Assembly: GCA_001779315.1 (NCBI GenBank)
Contig: MFJU01000001.1
Location: forward strand, 6,258-70,257
Direction of reading: 5' to 3'
Length of the DNA: 64,000 nucleotides
From: Candidatus Gottesmanbacteria bacterium RIFCSPLOWO2_01_FULL_42_22
GTDB lineage: Bacteria > Patescibacteriota > Microgenomatia > 2-02-FULL-39-11
How positions within the stretch are numbered: position 1 is the stretch's first letter; each line of letters begins with the position of its first letter. The notes below the pieces were generated by a model. The model was not told where the DNA came from. It saw nothing but the letters and a program-made list of their open reading frames with translations, and did no database searches. Both the position numbers and the translations under genes were made by a program. Shown piece after piece: positions 31,718 through 55,144 of this stretch.

Positions 31718-33224
31718 TAAAGATTTTTTTAAAACTGTCCAGGAGTTTATTTAATTTACCTGCAGTCTCATCGCTGATTTTTTCTTCGGTTCTGATTTTT
31801 TTCAGGATATCCTTATGCTGGCCATTGATATAATCCAGATAGGCAAGTTCAAAATCGGCGATTTTGACTGTCTCAATATCATCCAGATAACCGTTGGTCC
31901 CTGCGTAAAATAAAACCACCTGCTCCTCGACACTCATGGGTTTGAACTGGCCCTGTTTTAGAAGCTCAATCATTCTGGCTCCGCGTTCGATCTGTTTTTT
32001 GGTTTTTTCATCCAGGTCTGTGGCAAATTGGGCAAAAGCGGCCATGTCGCGGTACTGGGCTAAATCCAGTCTTAATCTGCCGGCTACCTGCTTTATGGCC
32101 TTAATTTGGGCTGCTGCCCCGACTCTGGAAACTGACAATCCGACATTAATGGCCGGTCTGATACCGGCATAAAAAAGGTCAGATTCGAAATAAATCTGAC
32201 CGTCGGTGATGGAAATGACATTGGTCGGAATGTAGGCCGACATGTCTCCGGCCTGGGTTTCAATGATGGGAAGTGCCGTCAGAGAACCTCCGCCGTATTT
32301 TTCCGACAGGCGGGCGCTTCTTTCCAAAAGCCTGGAATGGAGGTAGAAAATGTCGCCCGGATAGGCTTCACGTCCTGAAGGCCTTCTTAAAATAAGCGAT
32401 ATCTGCCGGTAAGCCCAGGCATGCTTGGTTAAATCGTCATAGACAACCAGGGCATCTTTGCCCTTATCCATGAAATATTCACCGATAGCTGTACCCGTGT
32501 ATGGCGCGATATACTGCATGGAAGCAGGATCAGAAGCGTTGGCCGCCACAATAATCGTGTGTTCCAAAGCGCCGTTGCGGCTGAATAAATCAATTATTTG
32601 CGCAATTCTGGAGGCTTTCTGACCGATGGCTACATAAATACAAACTACATTCTTGCCTTTTTGGTTAATGATCGTATCCAGAGTGACCGCTGTTTTTCCG
32701 GTACCCCGGTCGCCGATAATAAGTTCCCTTTGTCCCCGACCGATAGGAATCATGCTGTCAATCGCTTTGATGCCGGTCTGAAGCGGAGTTGAGACAGGCT
32801 GGCGTTTGACCACACCCGGAGCCATTTTTTCTATCGGATAATATTTGTCAATTTTGACGGGACCTTTTCCATCCAGGGAATTACCTAAAGGATCGATTAC
32901 CCTGCCTATTAAATCCTCGCCTGCGCCTATTGATAACAGCCGGTCGATGCCTCTGACTATATCGCCTTCTTTGATATCCAGATAATCTCCTAAAATAACT
33001 ACACCTACCTGTTTTTCTTCCAGATTAATGGCCACACCCAAAACACCGTTGGCAAATTCCACCATTTCCGAATATGAGAGATCGTTAAGTCCGGAGACTT
33101 TAGCCACTCCGTCAGTAACTTCCATCACCTTACCGATAAATCCCGCTTCAATTTCCGGTCTGACTTTATCAAGTTTTTTAAGTAAATCACCGATAATGGC
33201 GCCGGTGGTAATTTTATTTGGCAT
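31710..33224 (-). CDS. atpA: F1 ATP synthase alpha subunit
   Basis: 504 aa; P-loop GDRGTGKT. Confidence 0.95.
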
Positions 33225-38712: not shown

Positions 38713-39477
38713 TTACATTTTTATTACCGGAAATTCAGACTGCCAGGCTATTACCTTGTTTCTGCCTCCTGATGTAGCTAATGCTGACGGCCATTCCCCT
38801 TTAGCTACATAGAGTGCCGAATCTGCCCTACTTAGGATAGATCTTAGATCATCCTCCTTTCTAACAACAGTATATCCGATACTGGCAGTGATAGGTTCTG
38901 GAATCTTAACTCCCTCAATTTTGGATGCCAACTCAGATTCTATTGTTTGACGAAGTCTTTCCAACGCAACCATTCCCCCATCTTCTCCTGTATTGGAAAG
39001 AACTGCAGCAAATTCCTCTCCGCCTAATCTAGCGACGGCATCTGTTACCCGTAATGTTTCCCCTATAATTTGTGAAAATTTTTTTAAGACTTCATCCCCT
39101 ATTGCGTGACCGTAATTTGTATTAAATTGCTTAAAATGATCAAGATCAATCATCGCTATCACAAGAGGTTCGCTTGTTCTTTCGGCATGAGATTTCATCA
39201 TTTCCACAATTTTTTCGAAGCCACGTCTGTTCCAAACTGCCGTTAATTCATCGGTAGTACCCTTCATGATTAACAATGATAAATGATCCGCCAATGCCTG
39301 AGCTACTACCTCAATAGGCAACTGATCATTTTTTACAGATTGCAATAGTGAAATCATATTTTGCGCTATTTCACTGCTCTCAATTTGTCGATGTCTTTCC
39401 AGATTTAAAGGTATATTAATTGTTGCTTCTTTTGTACGTCTTTGAAGATATTGAAAATATTCCGTTCCATTATCCAT
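38713..39477 (-). CDS. GGDEF-domain diguanylate cyclase with a short N-terminal sensor region of unknown type
   Basis: 254 aa; ..LTAVWNRRGFE.., ..IDLDHFKQFNTNYGH.., active-site RLGGEEF; AT-richer codon usage than its neighbours. Confidence 0.8.
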   Translation of the reverse strand: MDNGTEYFQYLQRRTKEATINIPLNLERHRQIESSEIAQNMISLLQSVKNDQLPIEVVAQALADHLSLLIMKGTTDELTAVWNRRGFEKIVEMMKSHAERTSEPLVIAMIDLDHFKQFNTNYGHAIGDEVLKKFSQIIGETLRVTDAVARLGGEEFAAVLSNTGEDGGMVALERLRQTIESELASKIEGVKIPEPITASIGYTVVRKEDDLRSILSRADSALYVAKGEWPSALATSGGRNKVIAWQSEFPVIKM

Positions 39478-42618: not shown

Positions 42619-43905
42619 TCAGTCTCCGATCATACCGGAAAGATAGCAGAATCTGTCGATCAACTGCTGAATGTCATCTCCCGTGTATCCTTCGTTCATT
42701 TTTAAATCGTGTCCGATAACTGCCAAAGTCATGGCTGCTTCTTCCCTTAATGTCCGTCCGCTGATGACTTTTTTAATATCCAAGCCGGCGGCATATTTTT
42801 TTAGATTGACATCACCGCTGTCAGCAGATGTAATTACTAACACGGTCACGTTTTTCTTCACCACTATGTTCACCAGCTGTTTTTTCCAATCTATCGGGGC
42901 AGTCCCACTGCCTCTGGCCTTTATAATAAAAATTCGCTTTCCCTTGTTATACAGAAGCGGAATTATTTGGCTGTCATTATCAACGGAGACGATATGAGCC
43001 AATTTAAAAGCTTTTTCCAGTCTGTCAAAAGTTGTCTCCCGGAAATAAAACCTGGATAAATAAGGGAATATTTCCATATTTTTTATTCTTTCGTACAAAT
43101 CATCACACAATGATGTTTTGAATATCCTATTATTTACAATTTGCAGGATTGCACCGGAATTTGGTGAATGAAAAATACCGTCAGAATGAAGTTTGACGGT
43201 ACCCAATCCCGGAAGAATTTCGATTACCTGATTTTGATCCTTACGAATAGCCGTAACTATGTAAACTCCGCCGTGTAACTGTTTTTCCAACCCCGTATAT
43301 ATGCCGCCGGTAATATTGGAGATTGCCAAAGAGTCTTCTACGTAACCGGATTCGGAAGAACCAATGAAAATGACTTTCTTTTTTGAAGCATATAAGTAGG
43401 GGGACAGCATCACCGCAAACAAGCAGGCCTTATTAGCCAAAGTATCTGTCCCCTGTGAGATGATTAAATTTTCAACCTGGCTCAATTCATTGATTGAAAA
43501 ATGTAATGAGGCTATGAAATGAGAGAAATTTTCCTGACCGGAGTCGAAACTGCTGATTCTGGCGGATTTCCGGAACTTTAAATCAACCCAGGGAATTTTA
43601 ATGTCTTTACCCTGGGTAAAAGTCCAGGGAAAAAGATGGCCTAAATTATCGGTCCTGATGACATTTTTTAGAATTAGTTTATTTATTTGTAAGGTATTTT
43701 TGCCTATAGTTTTCTCAATCGTTAAAGGATGCGGTGAAGGACTCAATTTGTTTAATTCGTTTTTTAGGGAATCAATTGTTCCCCCCTGGGCAATAAAGGT
43801 GAAAGAAGACTTTAAGATGTCTTTTTGTATTTCAAAATAATTTTTCCAGTTAGCGATGGACTTCCAAACTCTGCTGTCCAAAGATTTCTTCTGTTTAACG
43901 CCCAT
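42619..43905 (-). CDS. L-asparaginase-family protein with atypical spacing and a ~100-aa C-terminal extension
   Basis: 428 aa; asparaginase motif 1 ..AQGGTIDS.. and motif 2 ..ISQGTDTL..; lies between glnA and gatCAB. Confidence 0.55.
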   Translation of the reverse strand: MGVKQKKSLDSRVWKSIANWKNYFEIQKDILKSSFTFIAQGGTIDSLKNELNKLSPSPHPLTIEKTIGKNTLQINKLILKNVIRTDNLGHLFPWTFTQGKDIKIPWVDLKFRKSARISSFDSGQENFSHFIASLHFSINELSQVENLIISQGTDTLANKACLFAVMLSPYLYASKKKVIFIGSSESGYVEDSLAISNITGGIYTGLEKQLHGGVYIVTAIRKDQNQVIEILPGLGTVKLHSDGIFHSPNSGAILQIVNNRIFKTSLCDDLYERIKNMEIFPYLSRFYFRETTFDRLEKAFKLAHIVSVDNDSQIIPLLYNKGKRIFIIKARGSGTAPIDWKKQLVNIVVKKNVTVLVITSADSGDVNLKKYAAGLDIKKVISGRTLREEAAMTLAVIGHDLKMNEGYTGDDIQQLIDRFCYLSGMIGD

Positions 43906-43949
43906 AGTAATTTTTTGGACAGGGAATAGCCTATTATATCAATCTAAAG

Positions 43950-43984
43950 AACATAATAATAGAAGCCCTGACAGCAGGGCTTCT
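43950..43984 (-). terminator. Rho-independent terminator downstream of glnA
   Basis: Minus-strand RNA GAAGCCCUG-CUGU-CAGGGCUUC (9-bp stem) followed by UAUUAUUAUGUUCUUU. Confidence 0.55.
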
Positions 43985-44006
43985 TTTTAATAATTGGTTT
44001 TCTTGT

Positions 44007-45353
44007 TTAGGTAATTTCCAGGTATTTGGCCATTTCCCAATCGGTGACGTGAATGCGGAAGTCATCCCACTCTGCCTTTTTGGCTTCCAAATACCTGCTC
44101 CAGGTATAATCACCAAAGATATCCCGGACAATTCTGCCTTTTTCGATTTCATCAATCGCCTCTTTGAGCGAGGCCGGCAGTTTGGTAATGTAATGTTTTG
44201 CCAAGCGTGCATCGTCAAATTCGAAAAGATTCTCTTCGACCGGTTCCGGTGCTTTCATCGCCTTTTTAATGCCTTCCAGCCCGATTTTTAACAAAACGGC
44301 AAAGGTCAGATAAGGATTACTGGCCGGGTCCGGACTTCTGATTTCCAGCCTGGTGGCCTTTTCCTCTGTGCCTTTGGAAACTTTCGGTACGCGGATGAGG
44401 GCCGAGCGGTTGATTCTGGCCCAGCAGGCATAGACCGGCGCTTCATAGCCCGGTGTCAGACGCTTATAGGAATTGACCGTCGGCGCAAAAACACCGCTAA
44501 TTTCCCTGACATGCTTCAATTGTCCCGCTAGATATTGATAGGCAATTTTTGACAGGCCGTATTTATCGGCTTTGTCATAAAAGGCATTACGGCCGCCTTT
44601 CCACATAGATTGGTGGATATGCATACCCGAGCCGTTGATGCCGAAAAAGGGTTTCGGCATAAAAGTAGCATGAAAGTTATGCTTAAAGGCGATGAATTTT
44701 GTGGCCATCTTCAGAGTAATGGTGTTATCTGCTGTTCTCAAAGCCTTGTCATAACGGATGTCAATCTCATGCTGGTTATCAGCTACCTCATGGGTTGAGG
44801 ATTCTGTGATAATCCCCATTTGAGCGATGGCTTCCATTATCTCCCGTTTAATAAGATAGGTCTCATCCATGATCAGATCGAAATAATAACCGTTGCCTTT
44901 TGACTGAGGCAAGATACAACCGGAAGCGTCTTTGGGAAAAAGGAAAAATTCACATTCCGGGCCGGTGTAAAATTCAAAACCCAATTGTTTGGCTTCCATT
45001 AAAACCTTTTTCAGAATCTGCCTCGGATCGCCGTCAAAAGGTTCATGATTCGGTTTATAAACATCGCAAATGACTCTGGCTACTCTTCCCGTTTCAACAT
45101 TATTTCTCCAGGGCATAAGCGCGTAGGTATCCGGATCCGGCATCAGATACATGTCAGATTCATGGATCCTGGCATAACCTTCAATTGAAGAACCGTCAAT
45201 CCAGACACCCCGGACCATGGCATCGGGTAAATTATAGGCAGGAATGGTCGAGCTTTTTATATTGCCCAAAAAATCGGTAAATTGCAGATCGACAAAAGAA
45301 ACTTTATCTTTTTTTACGCGTTCCAGCACCTCTTTAATGTTGTCTTTAGGCAT
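44007..45353 (-). CDS. glnA: Glutamine synthetase type I
   Basis: 448 aa; GS beta-grasp plus catalytic domain (..GMHIHQS.., ..NPYL..); AGGAG RBS 9 nt upstream. Confidence 0.92.
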   Translation of the reverse strand: MPKDNIKEVLERVKKDKVSFVDLQFTDFLGNIKSSTIPAYNLPDAMVRGVWIDGSSIEGYARIHESDMYLMPDPDTYALMPWRNNVETGRVARVICDVYKPNHEPFDGDPRQILKKVLMEAKQLGFEFYTGPECEFFLFPKDASGCILPQSKGNGYYFDLIMDETYLIKREIMEAIAQMGIITESSTHEVADNQHEIDIRYDKALRTADNTITLKMATKFIAFKHNFHATFMPKPFFGINGSGMHIHQSMWKGGRNAFYDKADKYGLSKIAYQYLAGQLKHVREISGVFAPTVNSYKRLTPGYEAPVYACWARINRSALIRVPKVSKGTEEKATRLEIRSPDPASNPYLTFAVLLKIGLEGIKKAMKAPEPVEENLFEFDDARLAKHYITKLPASLKEAIDEIEKGRIVRDIFGDYTWSRYLEAKKAEWDDFRIHVTDWEMAKYLEIT

Positions 45354-45393
45354 GAGTCTAATCTCCTATAGTAATTTTAATAATCCAGGATAA

Positions 45394-45460
45394 TAAAAAA
45401 AGTCCTCTGCCTCATCATTGAGAGCAGAAGACTTCGCTGTCTTGCCCCGCTTCTTTGCGG
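45394..45460 (-). promoter_or_regulatory. ANTAR-type antiterminator target: two tandem hexaloop hairpins whose second stem overlaps the 5' arm of an intrinsic terminator in the glnA leader
   Basis: Minus-strand RNA: CCGC-AAAGAA-GCGG, then GGCA, then AGAC-AGCGAA-GUCU (both loops 6 nt with A1 and G4). Next comes the terminator AGUCUUCUGC-UCUCAAUGAUGA-GGCAGAGGACU + UUUUUUU. The hairpin-2 3' arm GUCU is shared with the terminator 5' arm. Confidence 0.65.
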
Positions 45461-45497
45461 AATAATTATTTATCTTAAATCCGGAAACAGCCTTCTG

Positions 45498-46214
45498 TCA
45501 AGCCCTGAATTTTATTCTGTCAGCCAGGATGACGGCTTCGGCTATTTCGCGGATCGATTTGCGGCTGTTCATGCTTTCCTGTTGCAGTCTTCGGTAAGCC
45601 TGATTTTCGTTTAAACTTAAGTTTTTCATCAAAATTCCTTTAGCTTTTTCCAAAACTTTCCTCATTTCCAGAGTTTCCCGGATAGCCAATGATTCTTCTA
45701 TCAATAAGGCATTTTCAATGGCAGTTCCTGCTAATTTGCCTATGGCTGACAAAAGGTTAATTTCCGTTGACGTATGTTTATGGATCTTCCTGTGCTGGAT
45801 ATTAATGACTCCGCAAACACCTTTTTTATTGAGAATGGGCACTGACAGGAAAGCTTCAAATTTGTCCTCGGGGAGACTTCGGAAATATTTGAAACGGCTA
45901 TCACGGGCCGCACCTTTGGAGATTGCCACGGGCTTTTTCTCTTTGGCCACCCAGCCGGTGATGCCTTCGCCCAATTTCATTTTTATCTGTTTCAACAAAT
46001 TACTGTGGGGATTTTTGGAGGCCCTCAGAATTAGTTCGTTCTGTCCTTCATCCAGGACATAAATCAGGCAGGAATCAGCCCGGGTCACGGAAGTCGCTAT
46101 TTTGACGATTTCCTTAAGCAGTTCATCTATTTCCAGCTTTTGAATATCCTGTGTAATTTTATACAAAAAGGACAATTCTTTATTAAGTTCCGAAATCCGG
46201 GTTTTTGCATTCAT
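45498..46214 (-). CDS. GAF-ANTAR RNA-binding antitermination regulator
   Basis: 238 aa; N-terminal GAF (..LGEGITGWVAKEKKP..); C-terminal ANTAR helix bundle (..EKAKGILMKNLSLNENQAYRRLQQESMNSRKSIREIAEAVI..). Confidence 0.8.
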   Translation of the reverse strand: MNAKTRISELNKELSFLYKITQDIQKLEIDELLKEIVKIATSVTRADSCLIYVLDEGQNELILRASKNPHSNLLKQIKMKLGEGITGWVAKEKKPVAISKGAARDSRFKYFRSLPEDKFEAFLSVPILNKKGVCGVINIQHRKIHKHTSTEINLLSAIGKLAGTAIENALLIEESLAIRETLEMRKVLEKAKGILMKNLSLNENQAYRRLQQESMNSRKSIREIAEAVILADRIKFRA

Positions 46215-46966
46215 ATGATTTTTTCGAGAATAGCCTGATGGGCTTGTTTTTCCTCGCTATCGGGAAGTAGGGACAATTTTATCTCTTTTCCGTATTTTTT
46301 TTCAAGGGCGCGCCCTATCAACCAATCGGCCACCAACCAATTTTTAGGTAAAAATGGACCGTGATAATAACTGCCGATAGCATTCCGGCAAATCCCTCCT
46401 TCAAATCCGTCATCACCGTTGTTTCCCCCACCCGCCAAAACTTCTGCCAGTGGTTTCATTTTCGGACCTAAATATGTCCGGCCGCCGTGGTTTTCAAAAC
46501 CTACGATAGTGATTCCTTTTAATCCCGTAGGATTAATAATTTTTGCTGCGCAATTGCTTATGAGCCGCTGTTTTTGGTCTCCGGGATGTTCTGTATGAAG
46601 ATCAAATATTGAAGCTCCGGGAATGGGATCTCCCTGATATGGCTTATAATAATGCCCGGCAGCCTGGTAAGCGGCGCAGACGAAAAGGGCAGGGATATTC
46701 TTTTTAATCATTTCCTTCAAGATAGGTCCTTTATTTTGAATAAAATCATCCGCGGCCACTCTTTGCTGCCGGTCCTGGGCTCCGCCCATGAAAATTAAAT
46801 CAGTCTTTTTTAAATCTTGTTTATTATTCTCCAGAGTTATCGGCAGGACCGAAACTCCGATTCCTCTCCACTGGCAGCGACGGGTCAGACAATAAATATT
46901 GCCGCGGTCACCGTAAGTAGACATCAAATCAGGATAAAGCCAGGCGATTGTTAGTTTGTAGTTCAT
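46211..46966 (-). CDS. gatD: Lipid II isoglutaminyl synthase glutaminase subunit (CobQ-like GATase partner of MurT)
   Basis: Near-identical blocks to characterised GatD (..ITIVGFENHGGRTY.., ..YYHGPFLPKN..). The ORF is open up to 47062, but the likely start is MNYKLTIAW at 46966. Confidence 0.75.
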   Translation of the reverse strand: MNYKLTIAWLYPDLMSTYGDRGNIYCLTRRCQWRGIGVSVLPITLENNKQDLKKTDLIFMGGAQDRQQRVAADDFIQNKGPILKEMIKKNIPALFVCAAYQAAGHYYKPYQGDPIPGASIFDLHTEHPGDQKQRLISNCAAKIINPTGLKGITIVGFENHGGRTYLGPKMKPLAEVLAGGGNNGDDGFEGGICRNAIGSYYHGPFLPKNWLVADWLIGRALEKKYGKEIKLSLLPDSEEKQAHQAILEKII

Positions 46967-46976
46967 AGTTTGTTGT

Positions 46977-48260
46977 TTATAGAATTTTTTTGCCGGATAT
47001 GATTTTTCTGATATCCAGCATGGCAGAATAAGTCGCCAGGATAAATAATTTTTCTCCCGCAACTTGCATCCCTACTGCTTGTTTGACTGCTTTTTGTAAA
47101 TCTGTTTCCAATAAGTAATTTTTCAAGCCGCTGTATTTGATGCGTAAACCCAAATCATAGGCCCTGTCCCCGGACAAAGTCAGATGGATAGATGCGGGAA
47201 TCATTTCGAAATCAACATCCCATATCCAGGAAACATCCCGACCGTCAGGTATCCGGTCATTTAATACAATCAGCAGATTATTGGCTTTAAGATCTAAAGC
47301 GGTTCTCAAAGATTCATTGAAGCCGGCCGGATTTTTGGACAGCATCAGTTTGATAAATCTGCCCATATATTCCATTTCCTCCTGCCTGCCAAAGGCCGGC
47401 CGCACTCTTTTTAATCCCTTTTTGATAACCGCCTCATCAATTTTCAATACCTTGGCAGAGGCGGCCGCTGCCTGGGTATTGTATTTGTTGTAAAGCCCGG
47501 GCAAAGGGGAATCCCAATTAAAAATTTGAGGGGATGGCCTTTTTAAATCGCACTTGAGACACTGCCACCACCCTAGATGGGAATAATAAACTGCGGAAAA
47601 TTTCAGACGGCTGCCGCAAGACGGGCAAAAAAGGGAATCCGTGGCGTGTTCAAAAGTTTTTTTCTGCCCTATTTTGTCATTCAAACCGAAATAAATAGTT
47701 TTGAGAGAGGCATTCTTGCCCAGGAAGGCGATCTGGGGGTCATCGCTGTTCAAAACCAATTTAGTTTTTTGAGTCAGTTTCCTGATAGCTTTCTGCCACT
47801 TTTCGGTGATGATATCAACTTCCCCATAGCGGTCCAGCTGGTCGCGGAAAAGATTGAGACAGACAAGCAAATCCGGAGACAGATTATCAAGTATGGCCGG
47901 CAGGGCATTTTCATCCGCTTCCAAAATGGCAAAATCACCATTTAAACTGCCGCTGATACTTGAGATCTGGATCAGCGATGAAACAACCCCGTTGACCAGA
48001 TTAGCTCCCGATGAATTGCTGATAACCTTAAAACCGGCTCCCTCCAGAATTGTTTTTACCATGAGTGAAGTAGTCGTCTTGCCGTTGGTACCGGCGATGA
48101 CAATCGTGCCTTTTAATTTTTGCGCTAATTTCTTAAGGAGGAAAGGATCAATTGCCAACGCCAGTTCTCCGGGCCAGGTGCCTCCGGCTCCCAGATTAAA
48201 AAGAGTACTAATTTTCCAAACAAGTTTGGCGATTAAAATGGCAAAATATTGCCTGATCAT
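46977..48260 (-). CDS. murT: Lipid II isoglutaminyl synthase, Mur-ligase-family subunit
   Basis: 427 aa; Mur ligase P-loop GTNGKTTT; Cys4 ribbon (CPSCG...CLKC); DUF1727-like C-terminus. Confidence 0.8.
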   Translation of the reverse strand: MIRQYFAILIAKLVWKISTLFNLGAGGTWPGELALAIDPFLLKKLAQKLKGTIVIAGTNGKTTTSLMVKTILEGAGFKVISNSSGANLVNGVVSSLIQISSISGSLNGDFAILEADENALPAILDNLSPDLLVCLNLFRDQLDRYGEVDIITEKWQKAIRKLTQKTKLVLNSDDPQIAFLGKNASLKTIYFGLNDKIGQKKTFEHATDSLFCPSCGSRLKFSAVYYSHLGWWQCLKCDLKRPSPQIFNWDSPLPGLYNKYNTQAAAASAKVLKIDEAVIKKGLKRVRPAFGRQEEMEYMGRFIKLMLSKNPAGFNESLRTALDLKANNLLIVLNDRIPDGRDVSWIWDVDFEMIPASIHLTLSGDRAYDLGLRIKYSGLKNYLLETDLQKAVKQAVGMQVAGEKLFILATYSAMLDIRKIISGKKIL

Positions 48261-48322
48261 AAAATTTGAAGACTGCTAATCAATTTTCCTACACCATCCA
48301 GGTAGATTAAGGCTACACCTTC

Positions 48323-49219
48323 CTACATGGCGGTTAAAATCTTTACCCTTTCGGATATGGGGGGATGGGTATTGAAAAGATTGGCAAACCAGGCGGAAAA
48401 GTTTTTGTCTTTAAAGGGATTGACAATATACAAATGAGCCGTGGCGTTGGTGGCCGCTTCCAGGACTTCCTTGTCAGCGGATATTTTCTGCAAAGCCGAG
48501 GCCAGTGCATCCGGATTTCTGGTCAAGAGAGCTCCGGACGCATCAGCCAGGAATTCCCTTCTTCTGGAAATTGCTAACTGGATCAGAGTCGCCACTAAAG
48601 GCGCGATTAAAGCCAGAACAATACTCATCAGGAATAATACAGCCGAGATATTACTCCTGTCATCCCTGTCCCTCTTACCCCACCATAGAGATCTTGAGAA
48701 CCAGTCAGACAGAAGAGCAATGACACCGACCATGATTGACACTATGGCCATCAGCCGGATATCAAAATTCTGGATATGGGAAATTTCGTGGGCAATAACC
48801 CCTTCCAACTCCCTTCTGGACAATTTATTGATGAGGCCGCGGGTGGCACAGACTACAGCGTGTTCCGGATCCCGGCCGGTGGCAAAAGCATTGGGAGCGC
48901 TGTCTTCAATCACATAAACTTTAGGTTTAGGGATACCGGCTGATAAAGCTATGTTCTCGGTGACGGTATAGAGGTCAAAATCTTTCTTGCGGTCAGCTAA
49001 CCGCGCTCCCGACAAAGTCAGGACCATTTTGTCTGAATAATAATAGCTGACCAGACTCATGATACCTGAGATGATCAGGCCCAGGCCGATCCACGATGAA
49101 CCATAACCCAAAGATTTACCCAGGATGTAACTGACCGTCACCACAAACAACATAAAAATCGTCATCACCATGACGGTTTTCATTTTATTGGCTTGTATCT
49201 GGCTGTGAATTGAGATCAT
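48323..49219 (-). CDS. htpX: Membrane zinc metalloprotease HtpX (M48)
   Basis: 298 aa; HEISH zinc motif; N- and C-terminal TM helices. Confidence 0.85.
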   Translation of the reverse strand: MISIHSQIQANKMKTVMVMTIFMLFVVTVSYILGKSLGYGSSWIGLGLIISGIMSLVSYYYSDKMVLTLSGARLADRKKDFDLYTVTENIALSAGIPKPKVYVIEDSAPNAFATGRDPEHAVVCATRGLINKLSRRELEGVIAHEISHIQNFDIRLMAIVSIMVGVIALLSDWFSRSLWWGKRDRDDRSNISAVLFLMSIVLALIAPLVATLIQLAISRRREFLADASGALLTRNPDALASALQKISADKEVLEAATNATAHLYIVNPFKDKNFSAWFANLFNTHPPISERVKILTAM

Positions 49220-49788
49220 TCCCCGAATTTTACCTCAACTTTTTTCCTGTCTTCTTTTTTGGCTTCATAATATTCCTTATCGCGGAAATTGAACTTTCCG
49301 GCAATTAAAGCATTCGGAAACATCTGGAGCTTTGTATTATACTCCATGACCATGGTATTGTGATGCTGCCGGGAAAAGGAAACTTTGTCTTCCGTATCCG
49401 CCAGTTCCTTCTGAAGCTGCAGGAAATTCTCATTCGCCTTCAGATTCGGATAATTCTCAGCCACGGCAAAAAGGGATTTTAATACACCGGACAATTGGTT
49501 GTCAGCCTGTGCTTTTTCTTTCGGGCTGGAGGCAGACAGAAGAGCAGATCTGGCACGGGTTATATTCTCCAGAAGTTTTTTTTCATGTTTGGTATAACCT
49601 TTGACCGTTTCCACCAGATTGGGTATTAAATCTGCCCTTCTTTTCAGCTGGACATCAATCTGGCTCCAGGCCTCACCTACCCTCATTTTTGATGAAACCA
49701 AATCATTATAGATGTACCAAATATATAAGGCAATCAATCCTAATATGGCCGCTAAAGCAAATAACATCAGTAAATCACCTCCGATCAA
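49216..49788 (-). CDS. lemA: LemA-family membrane protein
   Basis: 190 aa; N-terminal TM plus LemA helical domain; the usual lemA-htpX pairing, with 4-nt overlap. Confidence 0.85.
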   Translation of the reverse strand: MIGGDLLMLFALAAILGLIALYIWYIYNDLVSSKMRVGEAWSQIDVQLKRRADLIPNLVETVKGYTKHEKKLLENITRARSALLSASSPKEKAQADNQLSGVLKSLFAVAENYPNLKANENFLQLQKELADTEDKVSFSRQHHNTMVMEYNTKLQMFPNALIAGKFNFRDKEYYEAKKEDRKKVEVKFGE

Positions 49789-53680: not shown

Positions 53681-53684
53681 AACA

Positions 53685-53871
53685 TTCCTTCGGGGTAGGG
53701 TGAATCTCCTTCGCTGAAGCTTCGGCGATCGAGGTAATTCCCAATCGGTAGATATTCTCTACGAGTCCCGATTATATCGGGACATGAGCCGGCGAAACTC
53801 CGGCAGCGACCGTAAAGTCGGGATAAAAGAGGGATTTGAGTTTGTGTTACCCCGATGGCCGGGGTTTTTTT
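53685..53871 (+). promoter_or_regulatory. FMN riboswitch (RFN element) with a terminator-type expression platform
   Basis: CUUCGGGGUAGGGUGAA...AUUCCCAAUCGGUAG...GCGACCGUAAAGUCGGGAUAAAAGAGGGA matches the RFN core (cf. CUUCGGGGCAGGGUGAAAUUCCCGACCGGCGGUAG...CCGACAGUGAAAGUCUGGAUGGGAGAAGGA). Followed by CCCCGAUGGCCGGGG + UUUUUUU at 53850-53871, abutting the ATG at 53872. Confidence 0.8.
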
Positions 53872-54771
53872 ATGAAAAAAATATTGGTTAAAGGACCGCT
53901 TTTCATTATTATAGCTGCCTTGCTTTGGAGTTTTGACGCTTTACTGCGAAGAAGCCTTTATACTCTGCCGTCATCGGTGATTGTCTTTTATGAGCATCTA
54001 TTGGGCGCGATTATCCTCCTGCCCTTATTAGCAAGATATATAAAAGAAGCGAAAAAGATGAACCGCCGGGAATGGCTCTCTATACTTGTGGTCTCCCTGT
54101 TTTCCGGAGCCTTAGGCACTATTTTCTATACCAAAGCTTTGGGCATGGTCCAGTATATCCAGTTCTCGGTGGTTGTTCTTTTACAGCAGCTTCAGCCTAT
54201 CTGGGCAATTGCGGCAGCCGCCATTATCCTTAAAGAAAAAATTTCGGGCAAATTCATCAAATGGGCGATCTTAGGCATAATCGCCGCTTATTTGATCAGT
54301 TTCCGCGATCTTAAGATAAATTTTGTTTCCGGTTCCGGTCAGATTACCGCGGCTGTCTTAGCTCTCATGGCCGGTTTTGTCTGGGCGGTTTCCACCTCCT
54401 TTTCCAAAGTCGTTTTAAAAAAAGTTTCCTTTTTGACTGCTACTTTTTTAAGATTCATCCTGGCGCCTGTTTTCGCTTTCCTTTTTATTTTAGGAGAGAA
54501 GCAATTGCCGGCTCTTACAAAAATAAATCCCCAGCAGTGGCTGATGCTTTTGGCAATTACATTCTCAACCGGCATGGTGGCTCTGGTTATTTATTATTAC
54601 GGCCTGAAAAAAACACCTGCCAGGGTTAGTACTATCGCGGAATTGGTATGGCCTGCTTCAGCCATTTTTATCGATTATTTCCTCTATAAATCCATCCTCT
54701 CTCCGACACAGATTCTGGGGGTGATACTTTTATTTATCGCTATTTACCATGTCAGTAAATTTTCCAAGTAA
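53872..54771 (+). CDS. EamA/DMT-family 10-TM transporter, probable riboflavin importer (ImpX/RibN-like)
   Basis: Two EamA repeats of ~5 TM helices each; directly controlled by the FMN riboswitch and followed by riboflavin kinase. The ORF is open from the TTG at 53836, but that would read through the terminator hairpin; the ATG at 53872 (MKKILVKG...) is preferred. Confidence 0.75.
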   Translation: MKKILVKGPLFIIIAALLWSFDALLRRSLYTLPSSVIVFYEHLLGAIILLPLLARYIKEAKKMNRREWLSILVVSLFSGALGTIFYTKALGMVQYIQFSVVVLLQQLQPIWAIAAAAIILKEKISGKFIKWAILGIIAAYLISFRDLKINFVSGSGQITAAVLALMAGFVWAVSTSFSKVVLKKVSFLTATFLRFILAPVFAFLFILGEKQLPALTKINPQQWLMLLAITFSTGMVALVIYYYGLKKTPARVSTIAELVWPASAIFIDYFLYKSILSPTQILGVILLFIAIYHVSKFSK

Positions 54772-55144
54772 ATCTTTCAAAGCACAGGTCATCCACGGCC
54801 GGAAAATGGGGAAAAAATTCGGTTTTCCCACCATCAATCTCGATAACCCCAGAATATTATCCGGGTTCAATAACGGAGTTTACGCTGCTTCTGTTGCCAT
54901 TGAGGGCAAAAATTATCAGGGGCTTTTATACAAAGGACCGCGGTTGATTTTGGGGGAAACAGAAACCATTTTGGAAATCTATCTTCTTGATTTTGACAGG
55001 GACATCTACGGGCAATGTGTCTCATTTAAACTCTTGGGCTTTTTGAGGGGAGTAATCCATTTTCCCGACACGGAAGCATACAAAGAACAATTGAAAAATG
55101 ACATTAATACCGCCCAAAAAATCTTCCGAACTTCTAAAGATTAG
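54749..55144 (+). CDS. Monofunctional riboflavin kinase (RibF C-terminal-domain type; no FMN adenylyltransferase domain)
   Basis: 131 aa; ..GRKMGKKFGFPTINL.. flavokinase motif (GxxxGxxxGFPTxN); 23-nt overlap with the transporter gene. Confidence 0.8.
   Translation: MSVNFPSKSFKAQVIHGRKMGKKFGFPTINLDNPRILSGFNNGVYAASVAIEGKNYQGLLYKGPRLILGETETILEIYLLDFDRDIYGQCVSFKLLGFLRGVIHFPDTEAYKEQLKNDINTAQKIFRTSKD

Follow-up and report, generated by a model that had tools for sequence, protein, structure and literature searches.

A putative ANTAR-type antitermination switch in the glnA leader of Gottesmanbacteria, with the GAF-ANTAR regulator encoded next to it

In Candidatus Gottesmanbacteria bacterium RIFCSPLOWO2_01_FULL_42_22, a member of the candidate phyla radiation (CPR), the glutamine synthetase (GS) gene glnA is separated by a leader of 144 nt from an upstream gene, here called antar, which encodes a protein with one GAF and one ANTAR domain. 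We analyzed this locus within a 64-kb stretch of contig MFJU01000001.1 (the window, to which coordinates refer; the antar-glnA region, 45200-46400, is read on the minus strand). Our main conclusion, to which we give a probability of roughly 0.8, is that glnA is probably controlled by ANTAR-type antitermination exerted by the adjacent GAF-ANTAR protein. It draws on the architecture of the leader, on its conservation and covariation in orthologous loci and on the domains of the regulator.

The leader contains two tandem hairpins, P1 and P2, separated by a 2-nt linker and both closed by hexaloops with A in the first and G in the fourth position (A1 and G4). The 3' arm of P2, GUCU, is also the beginning of the 5' arm of an intrinsic terminator, and P2 and the terminator are mutually exclusive. 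The terminator hairpin, GUCUUCUGC(U)CUCA-AUGA-UGAGGCAGAGGAC (45432-45402), has a lower stem of 10 bp including one G-U pair, a 1-nt bulge and an upper stem of 4 bp, followed by U7. The sequence-only reading of this stretch had claimed just this pair of hairpins, with the same sequences and with P2 opening a 10-bp terminator before a U7 tract, and in addition that the gene upstream is a GAF-ANTAR regulator overlapping gatD by 4 nt; all of this was confirmed, the overlap being an ATGA shared by the antar start (46214-46212) and the gatD stop (46213-46211). The minimum free energy (MFE) structure of the window leader calculated with RNAfold consists of P1 and the terminator (-41.5 kcal/mol, z = -3.4 against shuffles), and the terminator hairpin alone has -19.8 kcal/mol. 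The same fold, with the 3' arm of P2 taken up by the terminator, is chosen over the full length of all ten aligned leaders, i.e. the window copy and those of nine orthologous genome loci (L001-L009). Since P2 alone has only 4-5 bp and faces terminators of -11 to -20 kcal/mol, the default state of the leader would be "off" and a factor would be needed to hold P2. The leader sequence thus supports the assignment to ANTAR-target RNAs, whose dual-hexaloop architecture was defined by Ramesh et al. 2012 (PMC3369931): two A1/G4 hexaloops, with the 3' arm of P2 shared with the terminator.

The sequence of the regulator recurs with 100% identity in a hypothetical protein of Candidatus Gottesmanbacteria bacterium RIFCSPLOWO2_02_FULL_42, and there are more than 100 clusters of proteins 60-85% identical to it, of which those named by organism all belong to Gottesmanbacteria. 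Some homologues are already annotated as "GAF and ANTAR domain-containing protein". Besides the nine genome loci we used three full-length metagenome loci (L080-L082). The order antar, leader, glnA, with gatC and gatA downstream, is kept in all 12, and the gene order in the orthologous loci is M48 peptidase, murT, gatD, GAF-ANTAR gene, leader, glnA, in some an asparaginase-like gene, gatC and gatA. Genes murT and gatD were found upstream in every locus whose upstream flank is covered (the sequences of L004 and L005 are without that flank). All 12 loci give a significant covariance-model match at the same site. The hairpins are therefore conserved in orthologous glnA leaders, as the sequence-only reading requires, and both P1 and P2 were found in all members of a set of 15 sequences which adds to the ten aligned leaders those of L080-L082 and of two more distant loci, L084 and L142.

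P1 is present in each of the ten aligned leaders with differing stem sequences. Compensatory changes affect four of its six pairs in these ten and five of six in the set of 15, in which 95.5% of P1 cells are paired as opposed to 31-54% in slid controls. For P1 and P2 together the value is 96.6%, again compared with 31-54% when the partners are slid, and none of 500 shuffles attained the observed covariation score (both in 15 sequences). P2 follows the pattern AGAC-NNNGNN-GUCU in the ten aligned leaders, with small changes in the outer pair; three of its four pairs never vary in the 15 sequences, which makes covariation silent for or against its pairing. In all ten the 3' arm of P2 runs into a terminator stem and a U-run, and at the base of that stem, where two pairs are compensatory, 97.5% of cells are paired. 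The loops follow the ANTAR rule: A1 is present in 14 of 15 P1 loops and in 13 of 15 P2 loops (G otherwise), G4 in all 15 of both, and positions 2, 3, 5 and 6 are variable. Several pairs are G-U and valid on the glnA sense strand only, which favors an RNA structure over a DNA operator; the idea that P1 is such an operator was rejected for this reason and because the stem covaries instead of keeping a fixed sequence.

The specificity of the element was examined with two covariance models, R1, made from all ten aligned leaders, and R2, made from L002-L009 and so excluding the window copy and its closest relative. R1 finds this leader site alone in the window (49 bits; next match E 0.5), and the runner-up, 43804-43842 on the minus strand, lies inside the asparaginase-like open reading frame (ORF); its loop has 8 nt and lacks G4, so that we regard it as a chance match. 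R2 recovers 45426-45464 (minus strand) with 38.6 bits and E 8e-7, the sole match with E<1 on both strands of the 64 kb. A loose descriptor written as a regular expression (hexaloop R..G.., stems of at least 4 and at least 3 bp, T5 nearby) matched the window 16 times and was dropped as too unspecific. Dual hexaloops are, therefore, common by chance, and it is their conservation and not their mere presence that counts as evidence. In Rfam 15, a search of the whole window at the gathering threshold gave nothing in the glnA leader, and a search of 44800-46800 with E up to 10 gave no ANTAR-target, glutamine-riboswitch or T-box match. The Rfam family L10_leader was discarded as an identity of the leader, as its 16.9 bits (gathering 44; E 8.6) come from an alignment to the terminator hairpin and U-tract.

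The ANTAR domain of the regulator matches Pfam PF03861 with 66.2 bits (cut-off 27.3) over residues 178-229, covering positions 3-54 of the 54 in the profile, and the GAF_2 match reaches 64.5 bits (cut-off 28.6). A sequence search of PDB aligned the ANTAR part with the RNA-bound ANTAR regulator 6wsh (3.7e-8) and also with 1s8n and 4akk; its matches include Rv1626 and NasR. The AlphaFold2 (AF2) model, with a predicted local distance difference test (pLDDT) score of 86.6 and of about 92-95 over ANTAR residues 181-230, has a GAF fold (29-141) preceded by an N-terminal helix and followed by a long helix (149-199) and helices 203-217 and 221-237. The long connecting helix typical of ANTAR proteins, followed by a compact helical unit, is thus found in the model.

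The best match of the GAF part among solved sequences is an uncharacterized Geobacter GAF domain (3e0y, 1.8e-19), followed by the GAF domains of PtsP/EI-Ntr (3ci6, 3.6e-15; 3trc, 1.9e-14). Partial NCBIfam matches are to the N-termini of PtsP (1.7e-18) and NifA (1.6e-11), and the first three Foldseek ranks are PtsP GAF domains with target-normalized template modeling (TM) scores of 0.84-0.87 and 23-26% identity. The regulator itself is no PtsP: it scores 66 bits where the cut-off is 583 and lacks a phosphotransferase domain. By sequence and model its GAF domain appears most similar to the PtsP/EI-Ntr type, which is a lead for the ligand and not a proof. Glutamine inhibits autophosphorylation of EI-Ntr via the GAF domain, which glutamine control requires (Ronneau et al. 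2016, PMC4848567), and an E. coli study cited there announces in its title reciprocal regulation by alpha-ketoglutarate. Because of this resemblance and of the gene neighborhood we propose, by analogy, glutamine or 2-oxoglutarate as the signal of the regulator, a suggestion that we would put somewhat short of an even chance.

A sigma-70-type promoter of glnA is predicted by a consensus scan, its -35 hexamer overlapping the antar stop codon and its predicted transcription start lying near 45465, about 3 nt before P1. The ten aligned leaders all have TTGACA, 17-18 nt and TA(A/G)GAT (TAGTAT in L006), with 9-12 nt from the end of the -10 to P1; in a spacer which is otherwise variable, TTGACA never changes, nor do four of the six -10 positions, and inspection by eye showed this motif in L080-L082, too. 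Behind glnA, a GC-rich hairpin is the likely terminator of its unit. Given the conserved promoter and the gene's own 3' hairpin, glnA looks like a separate promoter-attenuator-gene-terminator unit, and read-through from upstream is possibly a secondary input at most and not the main route. As for the genes upstream, gatD and antar overlap in five of eight loci (ATGA in the window, L001, L006 and L009; 11 nt in L002), are separated by a small gap in two (L003 and L008) and by about 190 nt in L007. This tight junction makes co-transcription of murT, gatD and antar likely, and a terminator scan found none between antar and the glnA leader. The claim that the murT-gatD-antar transcript reads through into glnA under the control of the regulator consequently stands in part: the coupling to gatD agrees with it, whereas the invariant promoter in ten aligned leaders speaks against such transcripts as the only route. 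Inside the 3' end of gatD (46276-46321, minus strand), 60-100 nt upstream of the antar start, two overlapping promoter-like matches were noticed, TTGAAA-18-TAAAAT and TTGATA-16-AAAAAT, which might serve antar as an internal promoter.

In the mechanism we propose, glnA would be transcribed from its own conserved sigma-70-type promoter and the nascent leader would form P1 first. By default, P2 being 4-5 bp, the terminator (45402-45432 and U7) would form next and transcription would end before glnA. The active GAF-ANTAR protein, most likely as a dimer, would bind the P1 and P2 hexaloops with their A1 and G4; this would keep GUCU in P2, the terminator would not be nucleated and RNA polymerase would proceed into glnA. 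Transcripts from murT-gatD-antar would encounter the same terminator and be gated likewise. The GAF domain would report nitrogen status, with glutamine as an inhibitor or 2-oxoglutarate as an activator, and low glutamine would lead to more GS synthesis. It is the binding of the RNA by the protein, the direction of regulation and the ligand that we infer here. An NLYDLP-type adenylylation motif is absent from the GS by a regular-expression search, a weak indication that would fit control at the level of synthesis.

Some observations weigh against this mechanism. The support for the pairing of P2 comes from sequence conservation alone, and this conservation could be explained also by the overlapping terminator arm. 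The promoter and the terminator were called by rules that may not be those of CPR bacteria. Besides, a model rebuilt from the 28 aligned substrates in Fig. S2 of Ramesh et al. 2012, mostly from eut operons of Firmicutes (R3), gives the window copy only 10.7 bits (E 0.8), in second rank and with P2 misplaced. Its top match in the window, 32447-32482 on the minus strand (15.8 bits, E 0.045), falls within the coding sequence of atpA; its P1 loop has 3 nt, and it is probably due to chance. The published set prefers ..AC/GU.. in P1 and ..AGC/GCU.. in P2, which are absent from the Gottesmanbacteria clade. P1 of the window closes with GC-GC and its P2 is AGAC/GUCU, compared with AC-GU and (G)AGC/GCU(C) in the published substrates, and it is because of these different stem sequences that their model barely scores the window copy. 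As R3 does match the same site in L082 (E 0.002), L084 (E 0.002) and L006 (E 0.1), and covariance models of ANTAR targets are reported to fail outside their training phyla (Mehta et al. 2021, PMC8164766), we do not regard the marginal score as a refutation. The remaining point concerns the ligand: GAF domains which bind cyclic nucleoside monophosphates (cNMP) score almost level with that of PtsP in Foldseek.

The alternatives differ in how much of the mechanism they would replace. The hairpin with U7 might simply be a constitutive terminator of the murT-gatD-antar unit, with P1 and P2 incidental and glnA controlled otherwise, and it is true that the terminator is strong and default-forming in all ten aligned leaders, that loose dual-hexaloop patterns arise by chance (the 16 in the window) and that R3 gives the window copy no better than E 0.8. 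However, a constitutive stop behind the conserved promoter would silence glnA, P1 covaries in five of six pairs, A1 and G4 are conserved while the other loop positions vary, and the element is always located beside an ANTAR gene, even in the distant L084 and L142, so we give this explanation hardly any credence. Regulation without a separate glnA promoter, with glnA reached only by regulated read-through from murT-gatD-antar in a closed glutamine loop with GatD, we consider unlikely. An invariant TTGACA-17/18-TAnGAT, 9-12 nt before P1 in a variable spacer of ten aligned leaders, is hard to reconcile with it, as are the gatD-antar gap of about 190 nt in L007 and the related regulators in other phyla, whose neighbors are glnA, amtB or nadE and not murT-gatD; what it does account for is that antar overlaps or abuts gatD in seven of eight loci, that the leader follows antar without a terminator in between and that murT-gatD synteny holds in Gottesmanbacteria loci with a covered upstream flank. 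The self-contained glutamine loop with GatD drawn by the sequence-only reading is a plausible conjecture.

The switch may also work as proposed with a GAF domain that senses something else, such as a cyclic nucleotide, cyclic di-GMP (c-di-GMP) or a redox cofactor. This is a serious possibility, even if we would not bet on it. The cyclic AMP (cAMP)- or cyclic GMP (cGMP)-binding GAF domains of Lcd1 and PDE5/2 are near the PtsP GAF in Foldseek; a GGDEF diguanylate cyclase gene (38713-39477, minus strand) is situated five genes downstream in the same array, between gatB and dnaE; and, according to PMC10783516, the ANTAR protein NasT binds c-di-GMP. On the other hand, the leading sequence matches and the top three Foldseek ranks are PtsP GAF domains, the next family, NifA, is also a nitrogen regulator, and the gene neighborhoods of the family belong to nitrogen or glutamine metabolism.

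Outside Gottesmanbacteria, the nearest relatives of the regulator are GAF-GAF-ANTAR proteins of about 410 aa, present in Elusimicrobia, Syntrophorhabdaceae, Manganitrophaceae, Firestonebacteria and unclassified metagenome-assembled genomes (MAGs). Their genes neighbor a gltB-like gene with NuoE/F-like genes, a purF-like gene, pyrG and queC, a glutamine-dependent nadE, a class I glutamine amidotransferase (GATase), amtB, and a gene whose small product carries a helix-turn-helix of the LuxR or sigma-70 region 4 type. In the intergenic regions at these genes the P2 signature is present again as AGAC-AUUGAW-GUCU, often with a terminator after it, and P1 is less clear. In L010, L015 and L018, whose hosts are Elusimicrobia, Syntrophorhabdaceae and an unclassified MAG, such hairpins precede nadE, a LuxR-like gene, the amtB region, a 2Fe-2S/NuoE-like gene 3' of the gltB-like gene, and the regulator's own gene, and P1 often has no clear hexaloop. 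In L084 the gene of a single-GAF relative, 49% identical, is followed by P1 and P2, then by a terminator and by an ORF resembling amtB (identified by eye and from N-terminal sequence only), and the relative in L142 is encoded upstream of P1, P2, a terminator and glnA. Relatives in other phyla thus adjoin glnA, amtB, nadE and gltB-like genes, not murT-gatD, and from these different neighbors we conclude that the module is a general nitrogen regulator and that its link to murT-gatD is specific to the Gottesmanbacteria lineage. A wider proposal is tentative, and we consider it less likely than not: as a one-component system, the GAF-ANTAR protein might sense glutamine or 2-oxoglutarate directly and be the main transcriptional nitrogen control in Gottesmanbacteria, and the GAF-GAF-ANTAR proteins might have the same role in several further uncultured phyla, Elusimicrobia and Syntrophorhabdaceae among them, acting through a P2 of the clade-specific form AGAC-hexaloop-GUCU before glnA, amtB, nadE and genes beside gltB-like ones.

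Two further features of the terminator region were looked at. No Shine-Dalgarno sequence accompanies the AUG AUG of the terminator loop, and this AUG pair, when the sequences were read through, proved not to be conserved, so attenuation by a leader peptide was rejected. The apex of the terminator (45411-45422, minus strand) can form a stem of 3-4 bp with the hexaloop AAUGAU (GAUGAU in L001), again with G4 and with A or G in the first position; this apical hexaloop is present in the window, L001 and L005 leaders and is not kept in other orthologues. The published-substrate model aligns L005 in this shifted register (E 1e-4).

The features of the locus are collected in Table 1. MurT equivalogs are the top-scoring NCBIfam models for the murT-like product, yet with 256 against a cut-off of 800, and the gatD-like product likewise matches NCBIfam GatD best, with 168.6 bits and so under the cut-off of 400. 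The gatD-like ORF reaches a TTG at 47062; its likely start is the ATG at 46966, and its translation contains MNYKLTIAWLYPD at residue 33. A MurT_C gene and a CobB/CobQ-type GATase gene are adjacent, as in the MurT/GatD lipid II isoglutaminyl synthase, and both are called "-like" because of the scores below the NCBIfam cut-offs. Between glnA and gatC there is an asparaginase-like gene (42619-43905, minus strand) for a protein of 428 aa that weakly matches GatD of archaea, the subunit D of Glu-tRNA(Gln) amidotransferase. The gene was found in L002, L003 and L007 and not detected in L001, L004-L006, L008 and L009, and its product could be an extra glutaminase subunit beside gatCAB.

Every annotated gene between 31710 and 51562 of the window is on the minus strand, with short spacers; the members of this array include polX, lemA, M48, murT, gatD, antar, glnA, gatCAB, GGDEF, dnaE and ATP synthase genes. 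Few terminator-like signals occur in the scanned region 43800-49500, and the hairpins flanking glnA are among them. Further away, a unit on the plus strand (53682-55144) is headed by an FMN riboswitch (Rfam RF00050, 68.3 bits; gathering score 66.2) directly 5' of an EamA-family transporter gene (53836-54771), which is followed by a stand-alone riboflavin kinase gene (54749-55144). This looks like a riboflavin salvage unit.

Table 1. Features of the glnA locus and related hairpins (positions in the 64-kb window, or in the locus named).
Feature	Position	Strand	Basis or details
murT-like gene	46977-48260	-	Pfam MurT_C 99.7 bits, Mur_ligase_M 59 bits
gatD-like glutamine amidotransferase gene	46211-46966	-	Pfam GATase_3 (CobB/CobQ-type) 98 bits
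GAF-ANTAR one-component regulator gene (antar), 238 aa	45498-46214	-	Pfam ANTAR 2.2e-18, GAF_2 1.5e-17
GAF domain of regulator	about 45714-46133	-	Pfam GAF_2
ANTAR domain of regulator	about 45528-45683	-	Pfam ANTAR
Predicted sigma-70-type glnA promoter	45472-45501	-	-35 TTGACA (45501-45496), -10 TAAGAT (45477-45472), 18-nt spacer; consensus scan
P1 hairpin	45445-45462	-	UUCCGC (45462-45457), loop AAAGAA (45456-45451), GCGGGG (45450-45445)
P2 hairpin	45429-45442	-	AGAC (45442-45439), loop AGCGAA (45438-45433), GUCU (45432-45429)
Intrinsic terminator	45395-45432	-	hairpin 45402-45432, U7 45395-45401; within RNAfold MFE structure
glnA ribosome-binding site AGGAG	45363-45367	-	
glnA, type I glutamine synthetase	44007-45353	-	ATG at 45353; Pfam Gln-synt_C 397 bits; NCBIfam TIGR00653 491.6 bits (cut-off 429)
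GC-rich hairpin 3' of glnA	43961-43984		terminator scan: 10 pairs, 4-nt loop; T-run on plus strand only
Intergenic AGAC-AUUGAW-GUCU hairpins around GAF-GAF-ANTAR genes	L010 2452-2600, 5647-5915, 7144-7360; L015 7186-7375; L018 7216-7425, 9272-9460		

The mechanism is not new. Most predicted ANTAR targets precede nitrogen genes, including glutamine synthases, and "glutamine synthetase" appears 25 times in Table S2 of Ramesh et al. 2012 (PMC3369931), so that nitrogen genes, glutamine synthetase among them, were predicted to be under ANTAR control already in 2012. The same paper described the GAF-ANTAR architecture as uncharacterized. In our literature search, papers from 2020 and 2025 mention it as an architecture only and no experimentally characterized GAF-ANTAR protein was found, while nothing relevant was retrieved on ANTAR in CPR/Patescibacteria ("antar" also matches "Antarctic"). 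We therefore describe a new and very well conserved instance, whose PtsP-like sensor domain and clade-specific P2 stem are of moderate interest. It would be a minimal ANTAR switch, whose parts are a promoter, 40 nt of sensor RNA, a terminator and one regulator of 238 aa, and its host belongs to the CPR, for which we found no published study of this kind on gene regulation. It makes testable whether a PtsP-type GAF domain couples glutamine or 2-oxoglutarate directly to RNA binding, and whether P2, with its invariant AGAC/GUCU stem, offers a recognition feature specific to this clade.

The relation to PtsP/EI-Ntr is confined to the sensor. Its GAF domain (3ci6, 3trc) is the closest solved one by fold and the second by sequence behind 3e0y, and the PtsP GAF structures matched are not ligand-bound ones; the output of PtsP/EI-Ntr is a phosphoenolpyruvate (PEP)-utilizing phosphotransferase, whereas that of the window regulator is ANTAR. 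With EutV/eut of Enterococcus faecalis, NasR/nasF and AmiR/amiE the window shares the tandem A1/G4 hexaloops, the 3' arm of P2 within the terminator, the adjacent regulator gene and a target in nitrogen metabolism. These published systems use receiver, NIT or pseudo-receiver domains, while the window has a GAF sensor and a CPR host. The same target gene, also with an adjacent ANTAR gene and with gatCAB nearby, is present in Alkaliphilus metalliredigens (Amet_3386 glnA and Amet_3385 ANTAR in Table S2 of Ramesh et al. 2012, likewise a prediction and one of those for glutamine synthetase in Firmicutes and other phyla), but there the ANTAR gene lies downstream of glnA and just downstream of gatB, and in the window it lies upstream of glnA. 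GnfK/GnfR of Geobacter sulfurreducens (PMC2995071) offers the same kind of ANTAR antitermination at leader terminators of genes for nitrogen assimilation and nitrogen fixation; GnfR, however, is a response regulator that is phosphorylated and has its kinase as a separate protein, while the window protein would combine sensor and output in a one-component GAF regulator.

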